DNA of 64,000 bases, from assembly GCA_021469345.1 (NCBI GenBank), contig GCA_021469345.1_3049.1. One strand, 5' to 3'. Source of the DNA: a phage. This document shows, in pieces, positions 6,321-14,380 of this stretch (positions within the stretch are counted from its first letter, which is position 1; each line of letters opens with the position of its first letter). Both the position numbers and the translations under genes were made by a program. The notes beneath the pieces were generated by a model. That model was given only the letters and a program-made list of their open reading frames with translations, did no database searches and was not told the origin of the DNA.

Positions 6321-6656
6321 ATGTCTGAAGTACAACAGCTACCAATTCGTGCTGTAGGTGAATATGTTATTTTAGTTTCTGAACCTGCACAAGCCGGTGA
6401 TGAAGAAGTTACAGAATCAGGACTTATTATCGGTAAACGTGTTCAAGGTGAAGTTCCTGAACTGTGTGTAATTCACTCTGTTGGTCCTGATGTTCCTGAA
6501 GGTTTTTGTGAAGTTGGTGATTTGACTTCTCTTCCAGTTGGTCAAATTCGAAACGTTCCGCATCCTTTTGTAGCTCTGGGTCTTAAGCAGCCAAAAGAAA
6601 TTAAACAAAAATTCGTTACCTGTCACTATAAAGCTATTCCGTGTCTTTATAAGTGA
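6321..6656 (+). CDS. 31: co-chaperonin gp31 (GroES analogue for capsid folding)
   Basis: 111 aa; matches remembered T4 gp31 length and position; SD AAAGGAAAAA. Confidence 0.85.
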
Positions 6657-6664
6657 TATAAATA
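6657..6664 (+). promoter_or_regulatory. candidate late promoter (TATAAATA)
   Basis: Exact TATAAATA immediately after gene 31 stop, about 140 bp upstream of rIII. Confidence 0.4.
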
Positions 6665-6803
6665 ATAATATGAATTGGGTGTCGGAATAATAAGTTAACC
6701 GAACAATTCTACGTGGTAGTCTACAACTGAGAGATCTGTCGAAAGAAGATGAAATTCAGAAGAACGTGACTACCGAGTTTTAATCTCTAACGAGAATTTT
6801 TAA

Positions 6804-7052
6804 ATGATTAAACAATTACAACACGCTCTTGAACTGCAACGAAACGCATGGAATAATGGTCACGAAAACTATGGCGCATCTATTGATGTTGAAGCCGAAG
6901 CTCTTGAAATCCTGCGTTATTTCAAACATCTGAATCCTGCTCAAACTGCATTAGCTGCTGAGCTCCAGGAAAAAGATGAACTTAAGTATGCTAAGCCTCT
7001 GGCTTCTGCTGCACGAAAAGCAGTTCGTCACTTTGTGGTAACACTGAAGTAA
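6804..7052 (+). CDS. rIII: rIII-like lysis-inhibition accessory protein (by position and length)
   Basis: 82 aa, same length and position as T4 rIII. Confidence 0.6.
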   Translation: MIKQLQHALELQRNAWNNGHENYGASIDVEAEALEILRYFKHLNPAQTALAAELQEKDELKYAKPLASAARKAVRHFVVTLK

Positions 7053-7255
7053 TTTATTGGAGATTCACTGCCTTAGTGTGAGCTAAAATCGAGGAGCCGT
7101 CGAACTGTCTGATTAATGATTTGCGAATCATTATAGTTTTAAGACCCCGGCAGTTTTACGGTGTACCTCTTGAATGTGAATGATGACGGGTTTATGGTTA
7201 TCCTGGTCGTTAAATATCCAAAAACCTATGTTCCCCTTGAGGGCTTGCGCAGGCA

Positions 7256-7474
7256 ATGCCAATAAGTCCTGCATTTTCATTTAAAAGAGAATTTATAATG
7301 GCAAAACAAGCTAAAGCAAAGAAAGCAGTTGAAAAGAAAGTTGGTGATTCTAAACGCGCTGGCTACAAGCGTGGGTCGAACTCTCGTATCAATCAAACTG
7401 TTGAGAAGATCATGCGCCGAGCACGTGCGGTTCTTCGAGATGATGCTTCTCGTTTTGGTAAGCAGAAAGCATAA
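7256..7474 (+). CDS. hypothetical small basic (Lys/Arg-rich) protein
   Basis: 72-aa ORF, or 58 aa from internal ATG 7298; strongly basic; followed by a terminator. Confidence 0.45.
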   Translation: MPISPAFSFKREFIMAKQAKAKKAVEKKVGDSKRAGYKRGSNSRINQTVEKIMRRARAVLRDDASRFGKQKA

Positions 7475-7478
7475 GTTG

Positions 7479-7505
7479 AGGACTCCTTCGGGAGTCCTTT
7501 TTTAT
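7479..7505 (+). terminator. rho-independent terminator
   Basis: aggactcc-ttcg-ggagtcct hairpin followed by a T-run. Confidence 0.7.
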
Positions 7506-7527
7506 TTTCCAAAGATTGCATAAAGTT

Positions 7528-7560
7528 GTTTACAGTATGGTTCCTTTGTGATAGTATTAT
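7528..7560 (+). promoter_or_regulatory. T4-type early promoter
   Basis: GTTTAC 7528-7533 ... tgtgatagtattat. Confidence 0.5.
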
Positions 7561-7584
7561 TTTACACAAACAAAGGAGAATAAA

Positions 7585-7917
7585 ATGAAAACGATTAATC
7601 TGAACGCTGCAGTTAAAACTAAATGCTTCAATGGTAAATATGATGAAACTATGTGGTTCTTAATGGCAGTTGAAGGTGATATTATTGAAGTAGAAACAAC
7701 AGAAGGTATGGGAACAGATTTCACCTTTACAATTCAAGTTCATAATTTCTTTACTGGTTGGATTTATGAATTGAATACAGTAATCGTTGGAAAAATTGAA
7801 CAAAATGAATTAGGTGAATGGTATTATGTTACAGCTCGCCAACGTGCCGAACGCTTAATTGAGAAGATGAAAAAAGTTGGTAAACTTGACATGAAGCACT
7901 GGAAAGTAGTAAAATAA
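7585..7917 (+). CDS. hypothetical protein (30.x cluster)
   Basis: 110-aa ORF; SD AAGGAG. Confidence 0.55.
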   Translation: MKTINLNAAVKTKCFNGKYDETMWFLMAVEGDIIEVETTEGMGTDFTFTIQVHNFFTGWIYELNTVIVGKIEQNELGEWYYVTARQRAERLIEKMKKVGKLDMKHWKVVK

Positions 7918-7919
7918 TT

Positions 7920-7950
7920 GTTTACTTTGGTACAGGATATGATATTATAT
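7920..7950 (+). promoter_or_regulatory. T4-type early promoter
   Basis: GTTTAC 7920-7925 ... TGATATTAT; -10 within inverted repeat ggtacagg/cctgtacc. Confidence 0.5.
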
Positions 7951-7984
7951 ACCTGTACCGCAATTAAACATCTTGGAGAATAAA

Positions 7985-8350
7985 ATGAACTACATTAACT
8001 TTGAACGTAAATATGTTTCTAATGGTATTGCAGGTTCTATTGATACTATTTGCCTTTGGAAACATCAAAATGGATCAGTATGCGAAATCGATCAGTATAT
8101 GACTCCTAATTACGTTTATATGCGATTTGAAAATGGCATCACGGTTTCAATCACAATGGAAGGTTCCAACTTTAAAATCGCTCTGGATGATGATTTTCGT
8201 CAACGCGATTTAGGGACTCATCCTTGCTGGAATGGTGCTAATCGCAAGCTTTTGGTTAAAACTTGGATTCGTCATATTCTGAGTAACAGAGCTAAACCTA
8301 AGCATCTTGAAGCAATCTTTGATGTAGTTCTTAACGAATTTGATATTTAA
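7985..8350 (+). CDS. hypothetical protein (30.x cluster)
   Basis: ORF-track start 7973 is TTG; ATG 7985 has GGAGAA SD; 121 aa. Confidence 0.55.
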   Translation: MNYINFERKYVSNGIAGSIDTICLWKHQNGSVCEIDQYMTPNYVYMRFENGITVSITMEGSNFKIALDDDFRQRDLGTHPCWNGANRKLLVKTWIRHILSNRAKPKHLEAIFDVVLNEFDI

Positions 8351-8358
8351 AATAAATG

Positions 8359-8376
8359 AGGGGCTTCGGCCCCTTA
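8359..8376 (+). terminator. intergenic stem-loop (possible terminator/attenuator)
   Basis: aggggc-ttcg-gcccct hairpin between two same-strand ORFs. Confidence 0.4.
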
Positions 8377-8390
8377 CTGAGGAAAATACT

Positions 8391-8678
8391 ATGTTTATGA
8401 CTACTTATTTTGATACCCGTAAAAATTTCTGTGAAGTGGTTTTCTCAAAGGCACCCAAAGACCTTCCTGCTCATTTGCAACCTACCAGTGAATCGATTAA
8501 AAATTATGTTAATGTAGTCTGCCCTTTAGAGTTCCGTACTGTAAATGGGCGCGATACTTTAGCTATCACTAAACTTAATCGTGAAATTGACATTGATCCT
8601 TCAATTGCGCGTGAAATTAACATTTCTGATATTGGCGGCGGTAATGTTAAATCGCACGGTTTTCAGATGAGGTTCTAA
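8391..8678 (+). CDS. hypothetical protein (30.x cluster)
   Basis: ORF-track start 8340 is TTG and spans the hairpin; ATG 8391 preceded by GAGGAAAA. Confidence 0.5.
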   Translation: MFMTTYFDTRKNFCEVVFSKAPKDLPAHLQPTSESIKNYVNVVCPLEFRTVNGRDTLAITKLNREIDIDPSIAREINISDIGGGNVKSHGFQMRF

Positions 8679-8875
8679 TGAAATTCTTTTTAGGTCAAAC
8701 TGTTGAATTAAAGGGAGTTGGTATACCTGGATTAATTTCTAAGGTTCTACCTCCATTTAAATGGAGCGATGTTCAAATAAAAGAGGCTTATATTGTTTCC
8801 TGGGTAGATGGAAATGAAGACCTTCGTATGGGTGATGAATTATCTCCTATTTACGGATTAAAGGAATTAGTATGA
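8678..8875 (+). CDS. hypothetical protein (30.x cluster)
   Basis: 65-aa ORF, ATGA-type overlap. Confidence 0.5.
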   Translation: MKFFLGQTVELKGVGIPGLISKVLPPFKWSDVQIKEAYIVSWVDGNEDLRMGDELSPIYGLKELV

Positions 8876-9078
8876 ATATAATTAATAAGATTTTTGGAAT
8901 TCAGTACATTAAGGTCACATATAAAGTAACAGATAAAAATCCGTATACTGATGAACATGAAGAACCACAAGTTAAGTCTATTATATTAGAAAAGGACCCT
9001 AACTGGCCAGTTGAATTTCGTCTTCCTTGCTATGGTCATTGGGCTGATGTTGAAATTATAAGTATTGAAAATGCCTGA
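8872..9078 (+). CDS. hypothetical protein (30.x cluster)
   Basis: 68-aa ORF; SD AAGGAA. Confidence 0.5.
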   Translation: MNIINKIFGIQYIKVTYKVTDKNPYTDEHEEPQVKSIILEKDPNWPVEFRLPCYGHWADVEIISIENA

Positions 9079-9529
9079 GTTAGAGATTAGAAGCAATTTT
9101 AGATGGCCATCATGCGCATTAAGCAATTTCGCCCAATGGCCTTTCGTTATGGATGGTATCCAATTTGGAGGTCTCGAAGGATTCCTCCAAGGATGTAAGG
9201 TGAAAAATGTTGAACAACAAAGACGTATATTTGGGTTGTCTGGATTGGCTGCACAGCAAGCTGGAAGGTCTTATGCAAGAGCTCAGGACCGTGGAACTCT
9301 CTTCTGGTTAGGAGTTCCGTTTTCAAGATACTCCGAAGCGTGGAAAGAATTATACACAAATGCATATTTTGAAGCCGCGATCCAAAATAAGGGGTTTCGT
9401 GATGCCTTACAAGCCTCTAAAGGAAAAATTTTGAAGCACAGCATGGCCAGCCACCTAACAAAAGATGATACAATACTAACTGAAGCTGAATTTATTGATG
9501 TGTTAAACCTATTAAGAGACTCTTTATGA
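9071..9529 (+). CDS. NADAR/YbiA-like (DUF1768) domain protein, candidate ADP-ribosyl hydrolase
   Basis: Motif LSNFAQWPFVMDGIQF..LEGFLQGCK resembles the YbiA/NADAR core (SNFA.WP..DG....E.yFQ..K); ORF-track start 9065 is TTG, ATG at 9071. Confidence 0.6.
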   Translation: MPELEIRSNFRWPSCALSNFAQWPFVMDGIQFGGLEGFLQGCKVKNVEQQRRIFGLSGLAAQQAGRSYARAQDRGTLFWLGVPFSRYSEAWKELYTNAYFEAAIQNKGFRDALQASKGKILKHSMASHLTKDDTILTEAEFIDVLNLLRDSL

Positions 9530-10365
9530 AGCCTACTATTTTAACTGATATTGATGGAGTATGTTTAAGCTGGCAATCAGGCCTTCCTTATTTTGCTCAG
9601 AAATATAATCTTCCGTTGGAACATATTTTAAAAATGATCCAAGATGAAAAATTTATTTCTCCTGGTAAACTTTTTAATTGTGATGAAGAACTTGGCGTCA
9701 AGTTAATTGAAAAATACAATCGTTCGGATTTTATTCGTTACTTGTCTCCATATAAAGATGCTCTGTGTGTAATTAACAAATTAAAAGAAGATTATAATTT
9801 TGTAGCTGTTACAGCATTGGGTGATTCTATTGACGCTCTGTTGAATCGTCAATTTAATTTGAATGCTCTTTTTCCTGGTGCCTTCTCAGAAGTAATGATG
9901 TGTGGTCATGATTCTTCAAAAGAAGAGTTGTTCAAAAAGGCAAAAGAGAAATATAACGTAATTTGTTATATTGACGATCTCGCTCACCACTGCGATCATG
10001 CGAGTGAAATATTAAATGTTCCTGTTTATTGGATGGCTCGAGGGGAGCGTGACAGTATTCCAAAAACTGCTCAGCGAGTTTATACATGGAACGATGTAGA
10101 GAATAAGCTTTTTTCACCAAAGGAAAATAAAGAAAGTTTTGATCGTGAAAAAGCTATAAAAGATGCAATCGAGAAGATGATTAAAAACGATTCTTTTCGT
10201 TGGAACACTACTTGGAGAACTCCTGGATTTAATCCTTATAATCATCTATATCATCCATATCAGACGCATCCGTTTCAGACATGGAACTATATTAAACCCG
10301 GCGGTATAGAGTATTTGTATAATAGACCTACTTGTGGTGATAATATTTTCCAAGGAGCATTCTAA
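9526..10365 (+). CDS. HAD-superfamily hydrolase-like protein (possible nucleotidase/phosphatase)
   Basis: N-terminal ILTDIDGV (HAD motif I DxDG[TV]) and later YIDD acidic motif; 279 aa. Confidence 0.5.
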   Translation: MKPTILTDIDGVCLSWQSGLPYFAQKYNLPLEHILKMIQDEKFISPGKLFNCDEELGVKLIEKYNRSDFIRYLSPYKDALCVINKLKEDYNFVAVTALGDSIDALLNRQFNLNALFPGAFSEVMMCGHDSSKEELFKKAKEKYNVICYIDDLAHHCDHASEILNVPVYWMARGERDSIPKTAQRVYTWNDVENKLFSPKENKESFDREKAIKDAIEKMIKNDSFRWNTTWRTPGFNPYNHLYHPYQTHPFQTWNYIKPGGIEYLYNRPTCGDNIFQGAF

Positions 10366-10634
10366 TGTTTGTTGTTCACACTATTTATGAAAATGAAGGT
10401 AATACTACACGTGATTACGGTCACGTAAATCAATTTTTTAGATGCAATCCAGAATTCCGATCTCAAAAAGACGAACGAATTTTTAAAAAATGCGTAGAGC
10501 AAGGTTTCATTTATATCAAGCACTGGATGCAAGGAAATAAAGTTAGAACTACATATCATAAGTCTTTGCCTGAGCTTAATGATGAATTGATTTATAATAG
10601 AGCTGTAAACCAAACTCTAAAGGATGAACAATGA
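10365..10634 (+). CDS. hypothetical protein (30.1 position)
   Basis: 89-aa ORF, ATG overlapping upstream stop. Confidence 0.5.
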   Translation: MFVVHTIYENEGNTTRDYGHVNQFFRCNPEFRSQKDERIFKKCVEQGFIYIKHWMQGNKVRTTYHKSLPELNDELIYNRAVNQTLKDEQ

Positions 10635-12094
10635 TTCTTAAAATTCTGAACGAAATAGCATCTATTGGTTCAACTAAGCAGAAGCAAGCAATTCTTGAAA
10701 AGAATAAAGATAATGAATTGCTTAAACGAGTATATCGTCTGACTTATTCTCGTGGGTTGCAGTATTATATTAAGAAATGGCCTAAACCTGGTATTGCTAC
10801 CCAGAGTTTTGGAATGTTGACTCTTACCGATATGCTTGACTTCATTGAATTCACATTAGCTACTCGGAAATTGACTGGAAATGCAGCAATTGAGGAATTA
10901 ACTGGATATATCACTGATGGTAAAAAAGATGATGTTGAAGTTTTGCGTCGGGTGATGATGCGAGACCTTGAATGTGGTGCTTCAGTATCTATTGCAAACA
11001 AAGTTTGGCCAGGTTTAATTCCTGAACAACCTCAAATGCTTGCAAGTTCTTATGATGAAAAAGGCATTAATAAGAATATCAAATTTCCAGCTTTTGCCCA
11101 GTTAAAAGCTGATGGAGCTCGGTGCTTTGCCGAAGTCAGAGGTGATGAATTAGATGATGTTCGTCTTTTATCACGAGCCGGTAATGAATATCTAGGATTA
11201 GATCTTCTTAAGGAAGAATTAATCAAAATGACCGCTGAAGCCCGCCAGATTCATCCAGAAGGCGTGTTAATTGATGGCGAATTGGTATACCATGAGCAAG
11301 TTAAAAAGGAACCAGAAGGCCTAGATTTTCTTTTTGATGCTCATCCTGAAAACAGTAAAGTTAAAGACTTCACAGAAGTAGCTGAATCACGTACTGCATC
11401 TAATGGCATCGCCAATAAATCTTTAAAGGGAACCATTTCTGAAAAAGAAGCTCAATGCATGAAGTTTCAGGTCTGGGATTATGTTCCGTTGGTAGAAATA
11501 TACGGTCTTCCTGCATTTCGTTTGAAATATGATGTACGTTTTTCTAAACTAGAACAAATGACATCAGGCTATGATAAAGTAATTTTAATTGAAAACCAGG
11601 TAGTAAATAACCTAGATGAAGCTAAGGTAATTTATAAAAAGTATATTGACCAAGGTCTTGAAGGTATTATTCTCAAAAATATCGATGGATTATGGGAAAA
11701 TGCTCGTTCAAAAAATCTCTATAAATTTAAAGAAGTAATTGATGTTGATTTAAAAATTGTAGGAATTTATCCTCACCGTAAAGACCCTACTAAAGCAGGT
11801 GGATTTATTCTTGAATCAGAGTGTGGAAAAATTAAGGTAAATGCTGGTTCAGGCTTAAAAGATAAAGCCGGTGTAAAATCGCATGAACTTGACCGTACTC
11901 GCATTATGGAAAACCAAAATTATTATATTGGAAAAATTCTAGAGTGCGAATGCAACGGTTGGTTAAAATCTGATGGCCGCACTGATTACGTTAAATTATT
12001 TCTTCCGATTGCGATTCGTTTACGCGAAGATAAAACTAAAGCTAATACATTTGAGGATGTATTTGGTGATTTTCATGAGGTAACTGGTCTATGA
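10631..12094 (+). CDS. 30: ATP-dependent DNA ligase
   Basis: 487 aa; adenylation motif KADGAR; same length as T4 gp30. Confidence 0.92.
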   Translation: MILKILNEIASIGSTKQKQAILEKNKDNELLKRVYRLTYSRGLQYYIKKWPKPGIATQSFGMLTLTDMLDFIEFTLATRKLTGNAAIEELTGYITDGKKDDVEVLRRVMMRDLECGASVSIANKVWPGLIPEQPQMLASSYDEKGINKNIKFPAFAQLKADGARCFAEVRGDELDDVRLLSRAGNEYLGLDLLKEELIKMTAEARQIHPEGVLIDGELVYHEQVKKEPEGLDFLFDAHPENSKVKDFTEVAESRTASNGIANKSLKGTISEKEAQCMKFQVWDYVPLVEIYGLPAFRLKYDVRFSKLEQMTSGYDKVILIENQVVNNLDEAKVIYKKYIDQGLEGIILKNIDGLWENARSKNLYKFKEVIDVDLKIVGIYPHRKDPTKAGGFILESECGKIKVNAGSGLKDKAGVKSHELDRTRIMENQNYYIGKILECECNGWLKSDGRTDYVKLFLPIAIRLREDKTKANTFEDVFGDFHEVTGL

Positions 12095-12279
12095 AAGCTT
12101 ACTTAGAAACAATTGTCATTGCTCAAAAAGAAGGTGGAGATGTTTCTACTTCTGTATCACAAGTCATTCTCGAATTTGTAGATGCATATGCTTATAATAA
12201 ATTCACAGAAACATTTGATGCCTATGAAAAAGGTCCAAAGTTTGAAATATACCGTACTCTCTTACCACTAGATTATTAA
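12091..12279 (+). CDS. hypothetical protein
   Basis: 62-aa ORF overlapping ligase stop, followed by a terminator. Confidence 0.45.
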   Translation: MKAYLETIVIAQKEGGDVSTSVSQVILEFVDAYAYNKFTETFDAYEKGPKFEIYRTLLPLDY

Positions 12280-12300
12280 AGGCCTTCGGGCCTTTAATTT
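12278..12300 (+). terminator. rho-independent terminator
   Basis: aaaggcc-ttcg-ggccttt hairpin then aatttt. Confidence 0.65.
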
Positions 12301-12308
12301 TATAAATA
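12301..12308 (+). promoter_or_regulatory. late promoter (TATAAATA) for alt
   Basis: Exact TATAAATA about 24 bp upstream of the alt start. Confidence 0.6.
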
Positions 12309-12331
12309 GAATAAACACTAGAGAGGTTATG

Positions 12332-14380
12332 ATGGAACTTATTACAGAATTATTTGATGAAGATACTACTCTTCCGATTACAAACTTAAATCCAAAGAAG
12401 AAAATACCACAAATTTTTTCAGTTCATGTTGATGACGCAATTGAACAACCAGGCTTTCGTTTATGTACCTATACATCTGGAGGTGATACTAATCGTGATT
12501 TAAAGATGGGCGATAAAATGATGCATATTGTTCCTTTTACATTAACCGCTAAAGGTTCAATTGCTAAATTGAAAGGTCTTGGTCCAAGCCCAATTAATTA
12601 TATCAATTCGGTTTTTACTGTTGCAATGCAAACAATGCGTCAGTATAAAATTGATGCCTGCATGCTTCGTATTCTTAAGTCTAAAACCGCCGGTCAAGCT
12701 CGACAAATTCAAGTTATTGCTGATAGACTTATCCGTAGTCGTTCAGGTGGCAGATACGTCCTTCTTAAGGAACTCTGGGATTATGATAAAAAGTATGCAT
12801 ATATTCTTATACATCGCAAAAATGTATCACTAGAAGACATTCCAGGGGTTCCGGAAATTAGTACCGAGCTCTTTACTAAAGTTGAATCGAAGGTCGGTGA
12901 TGTTTATATCAATAAAGATACTGGAGCTCAAGTAACTAAAAATGAGGCAATTGCAGCATCTATTGCACAAGAAAATGATAAACGTTCTGACCAAGCTGTA
13001 ATCGTTAAAGTTAAAATTTCCCGTAGAGCAATTGCACAAAGTCAGTCATTGGAATCTTCTAGATTTGAAACACCGATGTTTCAAAAATTTGAGGCTTCAG
13101 CGGCAGAATTAAATAAACCAGCGGACGCGCCTTTAATTTCTGATTCTAATGAATTAACGGTAATTTCTACTTCAGGATTTGCACTAGAGAATGCTCTTAG
13201 CAGTGTTACAGCTGGGATGGCATTCAGAGAAGCTTCTATAATTCCTGAAGATAAAGAATCCATTATTAATGCAGAAATAAAAAATAAAGCTTTAGAAAAA
13301 TTACGAAAAGAATCTATTACTTCAATAAAAACTTTAGAAACTATTGCTTCTATCGTCGATGATACTTTAGAAAAATATAAAGGTGCTTGGTTTGAAAGAA
13401 ATATTAACAAACATTCGCATTTAAATCAAGATGCTGCAAATGAGTTAGTACAAAATTCTTGGAATGCAATAAAAACAAAGATTATTCGAAGAGAATTACG
13501 TGGATATGCTCTTACCGCTGGATGGTCATTACATCCTATAGTCGAAAATAAAGATTCATCTAAATACACACCAGCGCAAAAACGCGGAATTCGTGAATAT
13601 GTAGGTTCAGGATATGTAGACATGAATAATGCTCTTTTGGGATTATATAATCCAGATGAGCGTACAAGTATTTTAACAGCATCTGAAATAGAACAAGCCA
13701 TTGATAATTTAGATTCAGCCTTTAAAAATGGTGAACGATTACCAAAAGGTATTACTTTGTATCGTTCACAACGAATGTTACCTTCAATATATGAAGCAAT
13801 GGTAAAAAATCGAGTTTTTTATTTTAGAAACTTTGTGTCAACATCATTATATCCAAATATTTTTGGTACTTGGATGACTGATTCATCTATAGGTGTTTTA
13901 CCAGACGAAAAGCGTCTAAGTGTTTCTATTGATAAAACTGATGAAGGACTAGTAAATTCTAGCGATAATTTAGTTGGAATTGGATGGGTTATTACTGGGG
14001 CTGATAAGGTCAATGTTGTTTTACCCGGTGGAAGTTTAGCGCCTTCAAATGAAATGGAAGTCATTTTGCCACGTGGATTAATGGTCAAAGTTAATAAAAT
14101 AACCGATGCATCTTACAACGATGGAACAGTTAGAACTAACAACAAGCTTATTCAAGCTGAAGTTATGACCACAGAAGAACTCACCGAATCGGTAATCTAT
14201 GACGGAGACCATTTAATGGAAACTGGTGAATTGGTTACAATGACAGGTGATATAGAAGACAGAGTTGACTTTGCATCATTTGTTTCATCAAATGTTAAAC
14301 AGAAAGTAGAATCATCTCTTGGAATTATTGCGTCTTGCATAGATATTGCAAACATGCCTTACAAGTTCGTTCAAGGATAA
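12332..14380 (+). CDS. alt: Alt ADP-ribosyltransferase (packaged, modifies host RNA polymerase)
   Basis: 682 aa from second ATG; ART-like R / S-T-S / E-x-E elements in the C-terminal half (LYRSQ..., FVSTSLY..., MEVILPRG); same length and position as T4 Alt. Confidence 0.88.
   Translation: MELITELFDEDTTLPITNLNPKKKIPQIFSVHVDDAIEQPGFRLCTYTSGGDTNRDLKMGDKMMHIVPFTLTAKGSIAKLKGLGPSPINYINSVFTVAMQTMRQYKIDACMLRILKSKTAGQARQIQVIADRLIRSRSGGRYVLLKELWDYDKKYAYILIHRKNVSLEDIPGVPEISTELFTKVESKVGDVYINKDTGAQVTKNEAIAASIAQENDKRSDQAVIVKVKISRRAIAQSQSLESSRFETPMFQKFEASAAELNKPADAPLISDSNELTVISTSGFALENALSSVTAGMAFREASIIPEDKESIINAEIKNKALEKLRKESITSIKTLETIASIVDDTLEKYKGAWFERNINKHSHLNQDAANELVQNSWNAIKTKIIRRELRGYALTAGWSLHPIVENKDSSKYTPAQKRGIREYVGSGYVDMNNALLGLYNPDERTSILTASEIEQAIDNLDSAFKNGERLPKGITLYRSQRMLPSIYEAMVKNRVFYFRNFVSTSLYPNIFGTWMTDSSIGVLPDEKRLSVSIDKTDEGLVNSSDNLVGIGWVITGADKVNVVLPGGSLAPSNEMEVILPRGLMVKVNKITDASYNDGTVRTNNKLIQAEVMTTEELTESVIYDGDHLMETGELVTMTGDIEDRVDFASFVSSNVKQKVESSLGIIASCIDIANMPYKFVQG

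Follow-up and report, generated by a model that had tools for sequence, protein, structure and literature searches.

What does the small open reading frame (ORF) between genes 30.4 and 30.2 of a T4-type phage encode, and is the allele carried here functional? A preliminary description, made from the letters of the DNA alone, had assigned its product to the NADAR (YbiA-like) family, as a possible counter-defence factor against DarT-type toxins or an enzyme of NAD/ADP-ribose metabolism. The window, the whole stretch of 64,000 nucleotides that was analysed, is a Tequatrovirus (T4-type) segment given in the direction of early transcription. The analysis revealed that the ORF is an intact copy of T4 gene 30.3, now named adfN, whose product is a published enzyme, and the finding itself is already known. 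For the window allele, orthology and fold are observed, together with an uninterrupted frame and the residues needed for catalysis, and the ORF very probably represents a functional adfN ortholog, encoding an early-expressed, single-domain DNA ADP-ribosylglycohydrolase of the NADAR fold that acts against DarTG1.

The adfN gene and its surroundings

The adfN frame ends with a TGA codon at 9527-9529. The program-made ORF list opens this frame at TTG 9065, two codons before ATG 9071, and the latter is the start that agrees with the T4 RefSeq record and yields a product of 152 residues. The product matches Pfam family PF08010 'Phage_30_3' with E=1.2e-69 (232.9 bits, cutoff 36), its sole Pfam match at E<=1, and is identical to T4 gp30.3 (NP_049816; NC_000866 128307..128765) at 147 of 152 positions (97%) in a gap-free alignment. 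A search of the phage collection found gp30.3 homologs in 1,511 phage records, and the nearest GenBank phage is 97.1% identical to the window across 8600..10700. The match is far above chance, and the ORF and product length proposed in the preliminary description are confirmed by the reading frame, the Pfam and T4 matches and the number of records with homologs.

The order of genes around adfN is that of the T4 map, namely 30.8, 30.7, 30.6, 30.5, 30.4, 30.3, 30.2, 30.1, gene 30 (DNA ligase), alt.1 and alt, and the ORF sizes also agree with the T4 record. Together with the Pfam matches obtained for 30.8, 30.7, 30.1 and the ligase, this bears out the earlier placement of the ORF in the gene 30.x early cluster. 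The start codon of adfN overlaps the stop of the upstream 30.4 ortholog (8872..9078), indicating tight packing and probable translational coupling of the two genes, and the ATGA overlap at the other end would likewise couple adfN to gene 30.2 (Table 1). Expression of adfN is predicted to be early. A scan for promoters and terminators across 6500..12500 returned sites no more common than in shuffled sequence (23 vs 21.5 and 4 vs 3.8) and is uninformative on expression of the gene.

Inside 30.3 the T4 RefSeq record also lists a gene 30.3', 75 codons long and read in another frame. In the window this frame (9207..9311, + strand) runs into a stop after 34 codons, and the idea that the locus has a second product was rejected; therefore 30.3' seems not to be a conserved coding gene. 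The phage's own ADP-ribosyltransferase gene, alt, lies about 2.8 kb downstream of this de-ADP-ribosylase gene in the same early direction, and the same pattern was described by Iyer et al. 2022.

Table 1. Features of the adfN locus in window coordinates.
Feature	Coordinates	Strand	Observation or source
adfN (T4 gene 30.3 ortholog), single-domain NADAR ADP-ribosylglycohydrolase, 152 aa	9071..9529	+	
ATGCCTGA, adfN start codon overlapping the stop of the upstream 30.4 ortholog	9071..9078	+	sequence, ORF list, T4 gene map
NADAR core motif ALSNFAQWPFVMDGIQFGGLEGFLQGCK, residues 16-43	9116..9199	+	peptide quoted in the preliminary description; aligns to YbiA 28-55 FSNFAAWPIKVDGKTWPTSEHYFQAQK (BLASTP, HMM, hhalign)
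Codon GAA, E36, catalytic glutamate	9176..9178	+	invariant in 63 homologs; aligns to YbiA E48
Codon AAG, K43, catalytic lysine	9197..9199	+	conservation of at least 90% across 63 homologs; aligns to YbiA K55
Codon CAC, H123, histidine of the phage (gp30.3) NADAR branch	9437..9439	+	invariant in 63 homologs
C-terminal alpha-helix, residues 138-151, intact	9482..9523	+	structure model
ATGA, gene 30.2 start codon overlapping the adfN stop	9526..9529	+	sequence, ORF list
Gene 30.2	9526..10365	+	'hypothetical' in T4 RefSeq
alt ortholog, 683 aa	12329..14380	+	PF03496 (ADP-ribosyltransferase exoenzyme, E=3e-34)

NADAR family membership and integrity of the allele

The gp30.3 proteins were placed in the NADAR superfamily by De Souza and Aravind (as cited in PMC11543638 and PMC11125620). 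For the window product this relationship had to be traced by profile and fold methods, since direct single-sequence and library searches came back empty: phmmer with the single sequence gave no match in PDB, NCBIfam and PADLOC (including its DarG models) gave none either, and PHROGs assigned the product to PHROG 652, of 'unknown function'. The absence of a match to PF08719 (NADAR/DUF1768) had been put forward as grounds for rejecting the assignment. No such match was detected in Pfam at E<=1, and the gathering threshold was not reached, but this is a poor yardstick, because the phage branch forms a separate Pfam family, PF08010. The missing match is a consequence of where Pfam sets the boundaries of its models and does not argue against homology. 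The two families are bridged by sub-threshold cross-matches only: a homolog of the adfN product (P0079) scores 32.3 bits against PF08719 (cutoff 35.1), and YbiA matches PF08010 with E=0.004. Several homologs carry the JGI label 'YbiA (DUF1768 family)'.

Two family alignments were used, one of 63 sequences and one of 64 that adds the T4 protein. When the former was compared with YbiA by hhalign, the match had a probability of 93.9% and E=1.6e-7 over 91 columns, while the latter, turned into an HMM and run on the full set of PDB sequences, gave a single meaningful match, YbiA (2b3w, E=0.0038). Pairwise BLASTP of E. coli YbiA and the adfN product showed 33% identity over 57 residues of the motif region (E=9e-6 for this single comparison). 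In the structure model the product adopts the NADAR alpha+beta fold, with a helical core and small flanking beta-hairpins; the nearest solved structures include YbiA, and the top three Foldseek matches in PDB are the same as those of the structure comparison. At E<=0.001 the named matches in a viral structure library consist almost entirely of phage proteins without characterisation and of proteins annotated as NADAR domains, and those ranked highest are gp30.3-like. The NADAR assignment made in the preliminary description is thus upheld by profile and fold comparisons, including the test of the fold that it had proposed.

The product contains both the Glu and the Lys of the E-x2-FQ-x2-K motif, E36 and K43, and residues A16, L17, S18, N19, F20, F25, E36, G37, F38 and Q40 are invariant in the 63 homologs. 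Each of the substitutions E36A and K43A abolishes the function of T4 AdfN (PMC11257639). The third catalytic position is occupied by His in the phage branch, Glu in YbiA-type and Asp in DarG1-type proteins (PMC11543638, PMC11125620); the hhalign match to YbiA stops at residue 122 (YbiA 124), and H123 is the next residue.

The adfN allele of phage RB69 is a natural, non-functional null (PMC11257639). According to the DNA alignment, it carries an additional T at gene position 411 (about 9481 in the window), resulting in ACT-TGA in place of the ACN GAA GCT of the window and T4; this frameshift leaves a CDS of 414 nt and deletes the last 15 residues, which correspond to the C-terminal helix in the model. 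The window allele has no additional T at this position and reads through to its full 152 residues as T4 does, and is therefore intact. It differs from the T4 protein by five substitutions, S2P, P89E, V120I, I125M and G128H, all of them outside the conserved positions, and RB69 likewise has E89, I120 and M125. At the DNA level the gene looks mosaic: gene positions of about 150-270 and 355-377 agree with RB69 at most of the sites where T4 diverges, while codons 127-128 (AGC CAC) are found in the window alone in the comparison of window, T4 and RB69. This pattern suggests that the allele is recombinant among T-even phages.

Published activity and alternative explanations

The function of the T4 protein has been established by genetics and biochemistry. 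DarTG1 resistance was mapped to gene 30.3 by phage crosses, and gp30.3 was renamed AdfN (Johannesman et al., bioRxiv 2024; Nat Commun 2025;16:1598). In the same work, deletion of adfN from T4 and T2 reduced plaquing on DarTG1 by about four logs, ectopic AdfN rescued RB69, DNA modified by DarT1 lost its ADP-ribose to AdfN, and DarTG2 was not countered. In a T4 transposon screen (HIDEN-SEQ), insertions in 30.3/adfN were lost only on DarTG1 hosts, and the same screen revealed tk.4/AdfM as the anti-DarTG2 factor (bioRxiv 10.1101/2025.11.20.689424). On E. coli K-12 the phage can do without the gene, which becomes essential on DarTG1 hosts alone (PMC11257639; bioRxiv 10.1101/2025.11.20.689424), and no interaction of AdfN with DarT1 was found by two-hybrid analysis, i.e. 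the toxin is not bound (PMC11257639).

In vitro data point to the same activity. NADARs reverse the guanine ADP-ribosylation catalysed by DarT1 (Schuller et al.), T4 gp30.3, when purified, strips DNA of guanosine-ADPr and leaves thymidine-ADPr in place (Toxins 2024), and guanosine-ADPr is hydrolysed by all NADARs tested, that of T4 included (Toxins 2026, PMC12945103). In the summary table of the latter work, activity on cytidine-ADPr is given for the general NADAR and YbiA-type families only, and the phage branch is absent. In PMC11125620 (Methods 4.2) the T4 NADAR construct is given as 'gp30.3; residues 1-208', vs the 152 residues encoded, which may be a matter of a tag or of numbering. RNA is likewise freed of guanosine-ADPr in vitro by NADARs of every family, that of phages included (PMC12945103), and given this activity it is curious that gp30.3 homologs of two distant phages, Aeromonas phage 44RR2.8t (3001..3450 of its locus) and Ralstonia phage RSP15 (2995..3513) are encoded within phage tRNA gene clusters, away from the ligase gene.

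The anti-DarT idea of the preliminary description is therefore borne out by the genetics and biochemistry of the T4 ortholog (PMC11825919, PMC11125620, bioRxiv 10.1101/2025.11.20.689424). Of the experiments it suggested, sensitisation by deletion has been published, with a positive outcome for DarTG1 and a negative one for DarTG2, and expression to relieve DarT toxicity has been published twice for the T4 protein, each time with a negative result in uninfected E. coli: gp30.3 did not rescue E. coli from DarT1 (Toxins 2024), and AdfN protected neither uninfected E. coli nor phages other than T-even ones (PMC11825919).

From the 97% identity to the T4 protein, the guanine-ADP-ribose glycohydrolase activity and the DarTG1-specific counter-defence are expected to carry over to the window allele. 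In a host with DarTG1, the DarT1 toxin would ADP-ribosylate guanines of the phage DNA and thereby block replication; AdfN would hydrolyse the guanine-N2-ADP-ribose bond by means of E36, K43 and H123, releasing ADP-ribose and returning the guanine to its normal state, so that replication could proceed. The target would be the damaged DNA, with the toxin left unbound, and since it would work on DNA and not on the toxin, AdfN would be similar to the antitoxin DarG1 but standing alone (an 'orphan antitoxin').

Other explanations are far less probable. The closeness to YbiA in solved structures, the RefSeq annotation of YbiA as an N-glycosidase and the metabolic option named in the preliminary description could suggest a small-molecule enzyme, either an N-glycosidase that acts like YbiA on riboflavin intermediates or a protein processing soluble ADP-ribose derivatives (in NAD/ADP-ribose metabolism or immune signals), with no part in DNA repair. 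This is very unlikely, as position 123 holds His and not the Glu that defines the YbiA branch, ADP-ribosylated DNA is a substrate of the T4 ortholog in vitro, and the phenotype caused by loss of this ortholog is specific to DarTG1; a role in NAD/ADP-ribose metabolism is not what the published experiments show. It is likewise highly improbable that AdfN serves mainly to tidy up behind the ADP-ribosyltransferases of the phage itself (Alt, ModA and ModB), for instance by clearing nucleic acids of stray ADP-ribose, and that the anti-DarTG1 effect is a side benefit. The Alt and Mod enzymes target protein arginines and are not known to modify guanine. The nearby alt gene and the in vitro activity of all NADAR families on RNA (PMC12945103) fit such a role, but the gene is dispensable on K-12 and essential only on DarTG1 hosts.

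It is hardly credible that AdfN binds DarT1 stoichiometrically or is an inactive remnant, although T-even phages do possess a toxin-binding factor, AdfA, and RB69 does have a dead adfN allele. Binding is contradicted by the negative two-hybrid result and by the loss of function in the E36A and K43A variants, and has already been refuted for T4; a remnant is at odds with a full-length window allele in which every catalytic residue is retained and the RB69 insertion is absent.

The dependence of AdfN on T-even infection has led to an additional T-even protein being suspected as a requirement (PMC11825919). A preference for hydroxymethylcytosine DNA, proposed in the preprint, was withdrawn in the peer-reviewed version after the same behaviour had been found with T4-GT7, whose DNA is unmodified (PMC11825919). 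Gene 30.2 was examined as a candidate partner because it starts at the adfN stop. Its product has no Pfam match and belongs to PHROG 420, which also takes in the genes directly downstream of the AdfN homologs in two distant T4-like phages, Acinetobacter phage AC4 (49% identity to gp30.2, with a sub-threshold HAD match) and Vibrio phage VH7D (PF06941 NT5C, E=3e-12). In the gp30.2 family alignment D8, D10, T96 and D151 are invariant, corresponding to HAD motifs I, II and IV, and the best PDB matches of the profile are 5'(3')-deoxyribonucleotidases (2jao, E=4.4e-7). On this basis gp30.2, which has a C-terminal extension of about 90 residues, is predicted to be a phosphatase of the HAD superfamily, similar to NT5C / 5'(3')-deoxyribonucleotidases.

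Across 86 loci, a gp30.2-like gene is found no more than 3 kb from the AdfN homolog in 22 and adjoins it in 15, mostly in close T-even relatives. The two families occur in similar numbers of phage records (1,439 for gp30.2 vs 1,511 for AdfN), which may reflect no more than a common T4-like ancestry. The HIDEN-SEQ paper names only adfN among the DarTG1 hits and nowhere mentions 30.2 (bioRxiv 10.1101/2025.11.20.689424). In view of this absence and the limited adjacency, gp30.2 was largely rejected as an obligate partner, and there is very little chance that it is the T-even protein needed by AdfN in vivo.

The fold, catalytic residues, substrate and phenotype of this counter-defence enzyme are already published and the window copy is near-identical, so the copy itself is of little consequence. 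Annotation lags behind the literature: the name AdfN dates from 2024, and the label 'hypothetical protein' stands in T4 RefSeq and in almost every record listed among the 1,511 with a homolog. Since Pfam, PHROGs, NCBIfam and PADLOC offer no functional name, automated pipelines can be expected to go on flagging adfN as unknown. An intact adfN predicts resistance of the phage to hosts carrying DarTG1, which is useful in the choice of therapeutic phages.

Comparison with known systems

The closest known relative is T4 AdfN (NP_049816; PF08010), which shares with the window protein its gene neighbours, E36, K43 and H123 and the intact C-terminal helix, with 97% identity over all 152 residues. The differences are confined to the five substitutions and to the part of the window DNA that follows RB69 where T4 differs.

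The DarG1 antitoxins (e.g. Geobacter lovleyi 8bat, E. coli C7 NADAR) are encoded beside darT1, whereas adfN in the window is an orphan with no adjoining darT. It is flanked by the 30.4 and 30.2 orthologs, and Pfam detected no DarT or any other toxin domain in the nine neighbouring ORFs, nor was there a PADLOC match. DarG1 has an N-terminal extension, while the window AdfN consists of the 152-residue core domain only, with the motif beginning at residue 16; the third catalytic residue is Asp in DarG1 and His123 in the window protein, and AdfN cannot replace DarG1 in uninfected cells. Proteins of the YbiA/PF08719 family (2b3w; P. nicotianae NADAR 8bau) are 18-19% identical to the window AdfN and have Glu in place of His123. 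YbiA itself is encoded on the chromosome, as a housekeeping or SOS-operon protein, and has a part in the metabolism of riboflavin.

Like AdfN, the phage factors AdfA (gp61.2), AdfM (the Tk.4 macrodomain), NADAR-Bas32 and NADAR-Bas60 all allow phages to escape DarT toxins. AdfA differs from AdfN in being a DarT1 binder with no enzymatic domain. AdfM and the Bas NADARs are, as AdfN, orphan antitoxin-like hydrolases, but AdfM is a macrodomain directed against the thymidine-targeting DarTG2, and the Bas32 and Bas60 proteins come from different NADAR branches and do not depend on T-even infection for their effect, as AdfN does.
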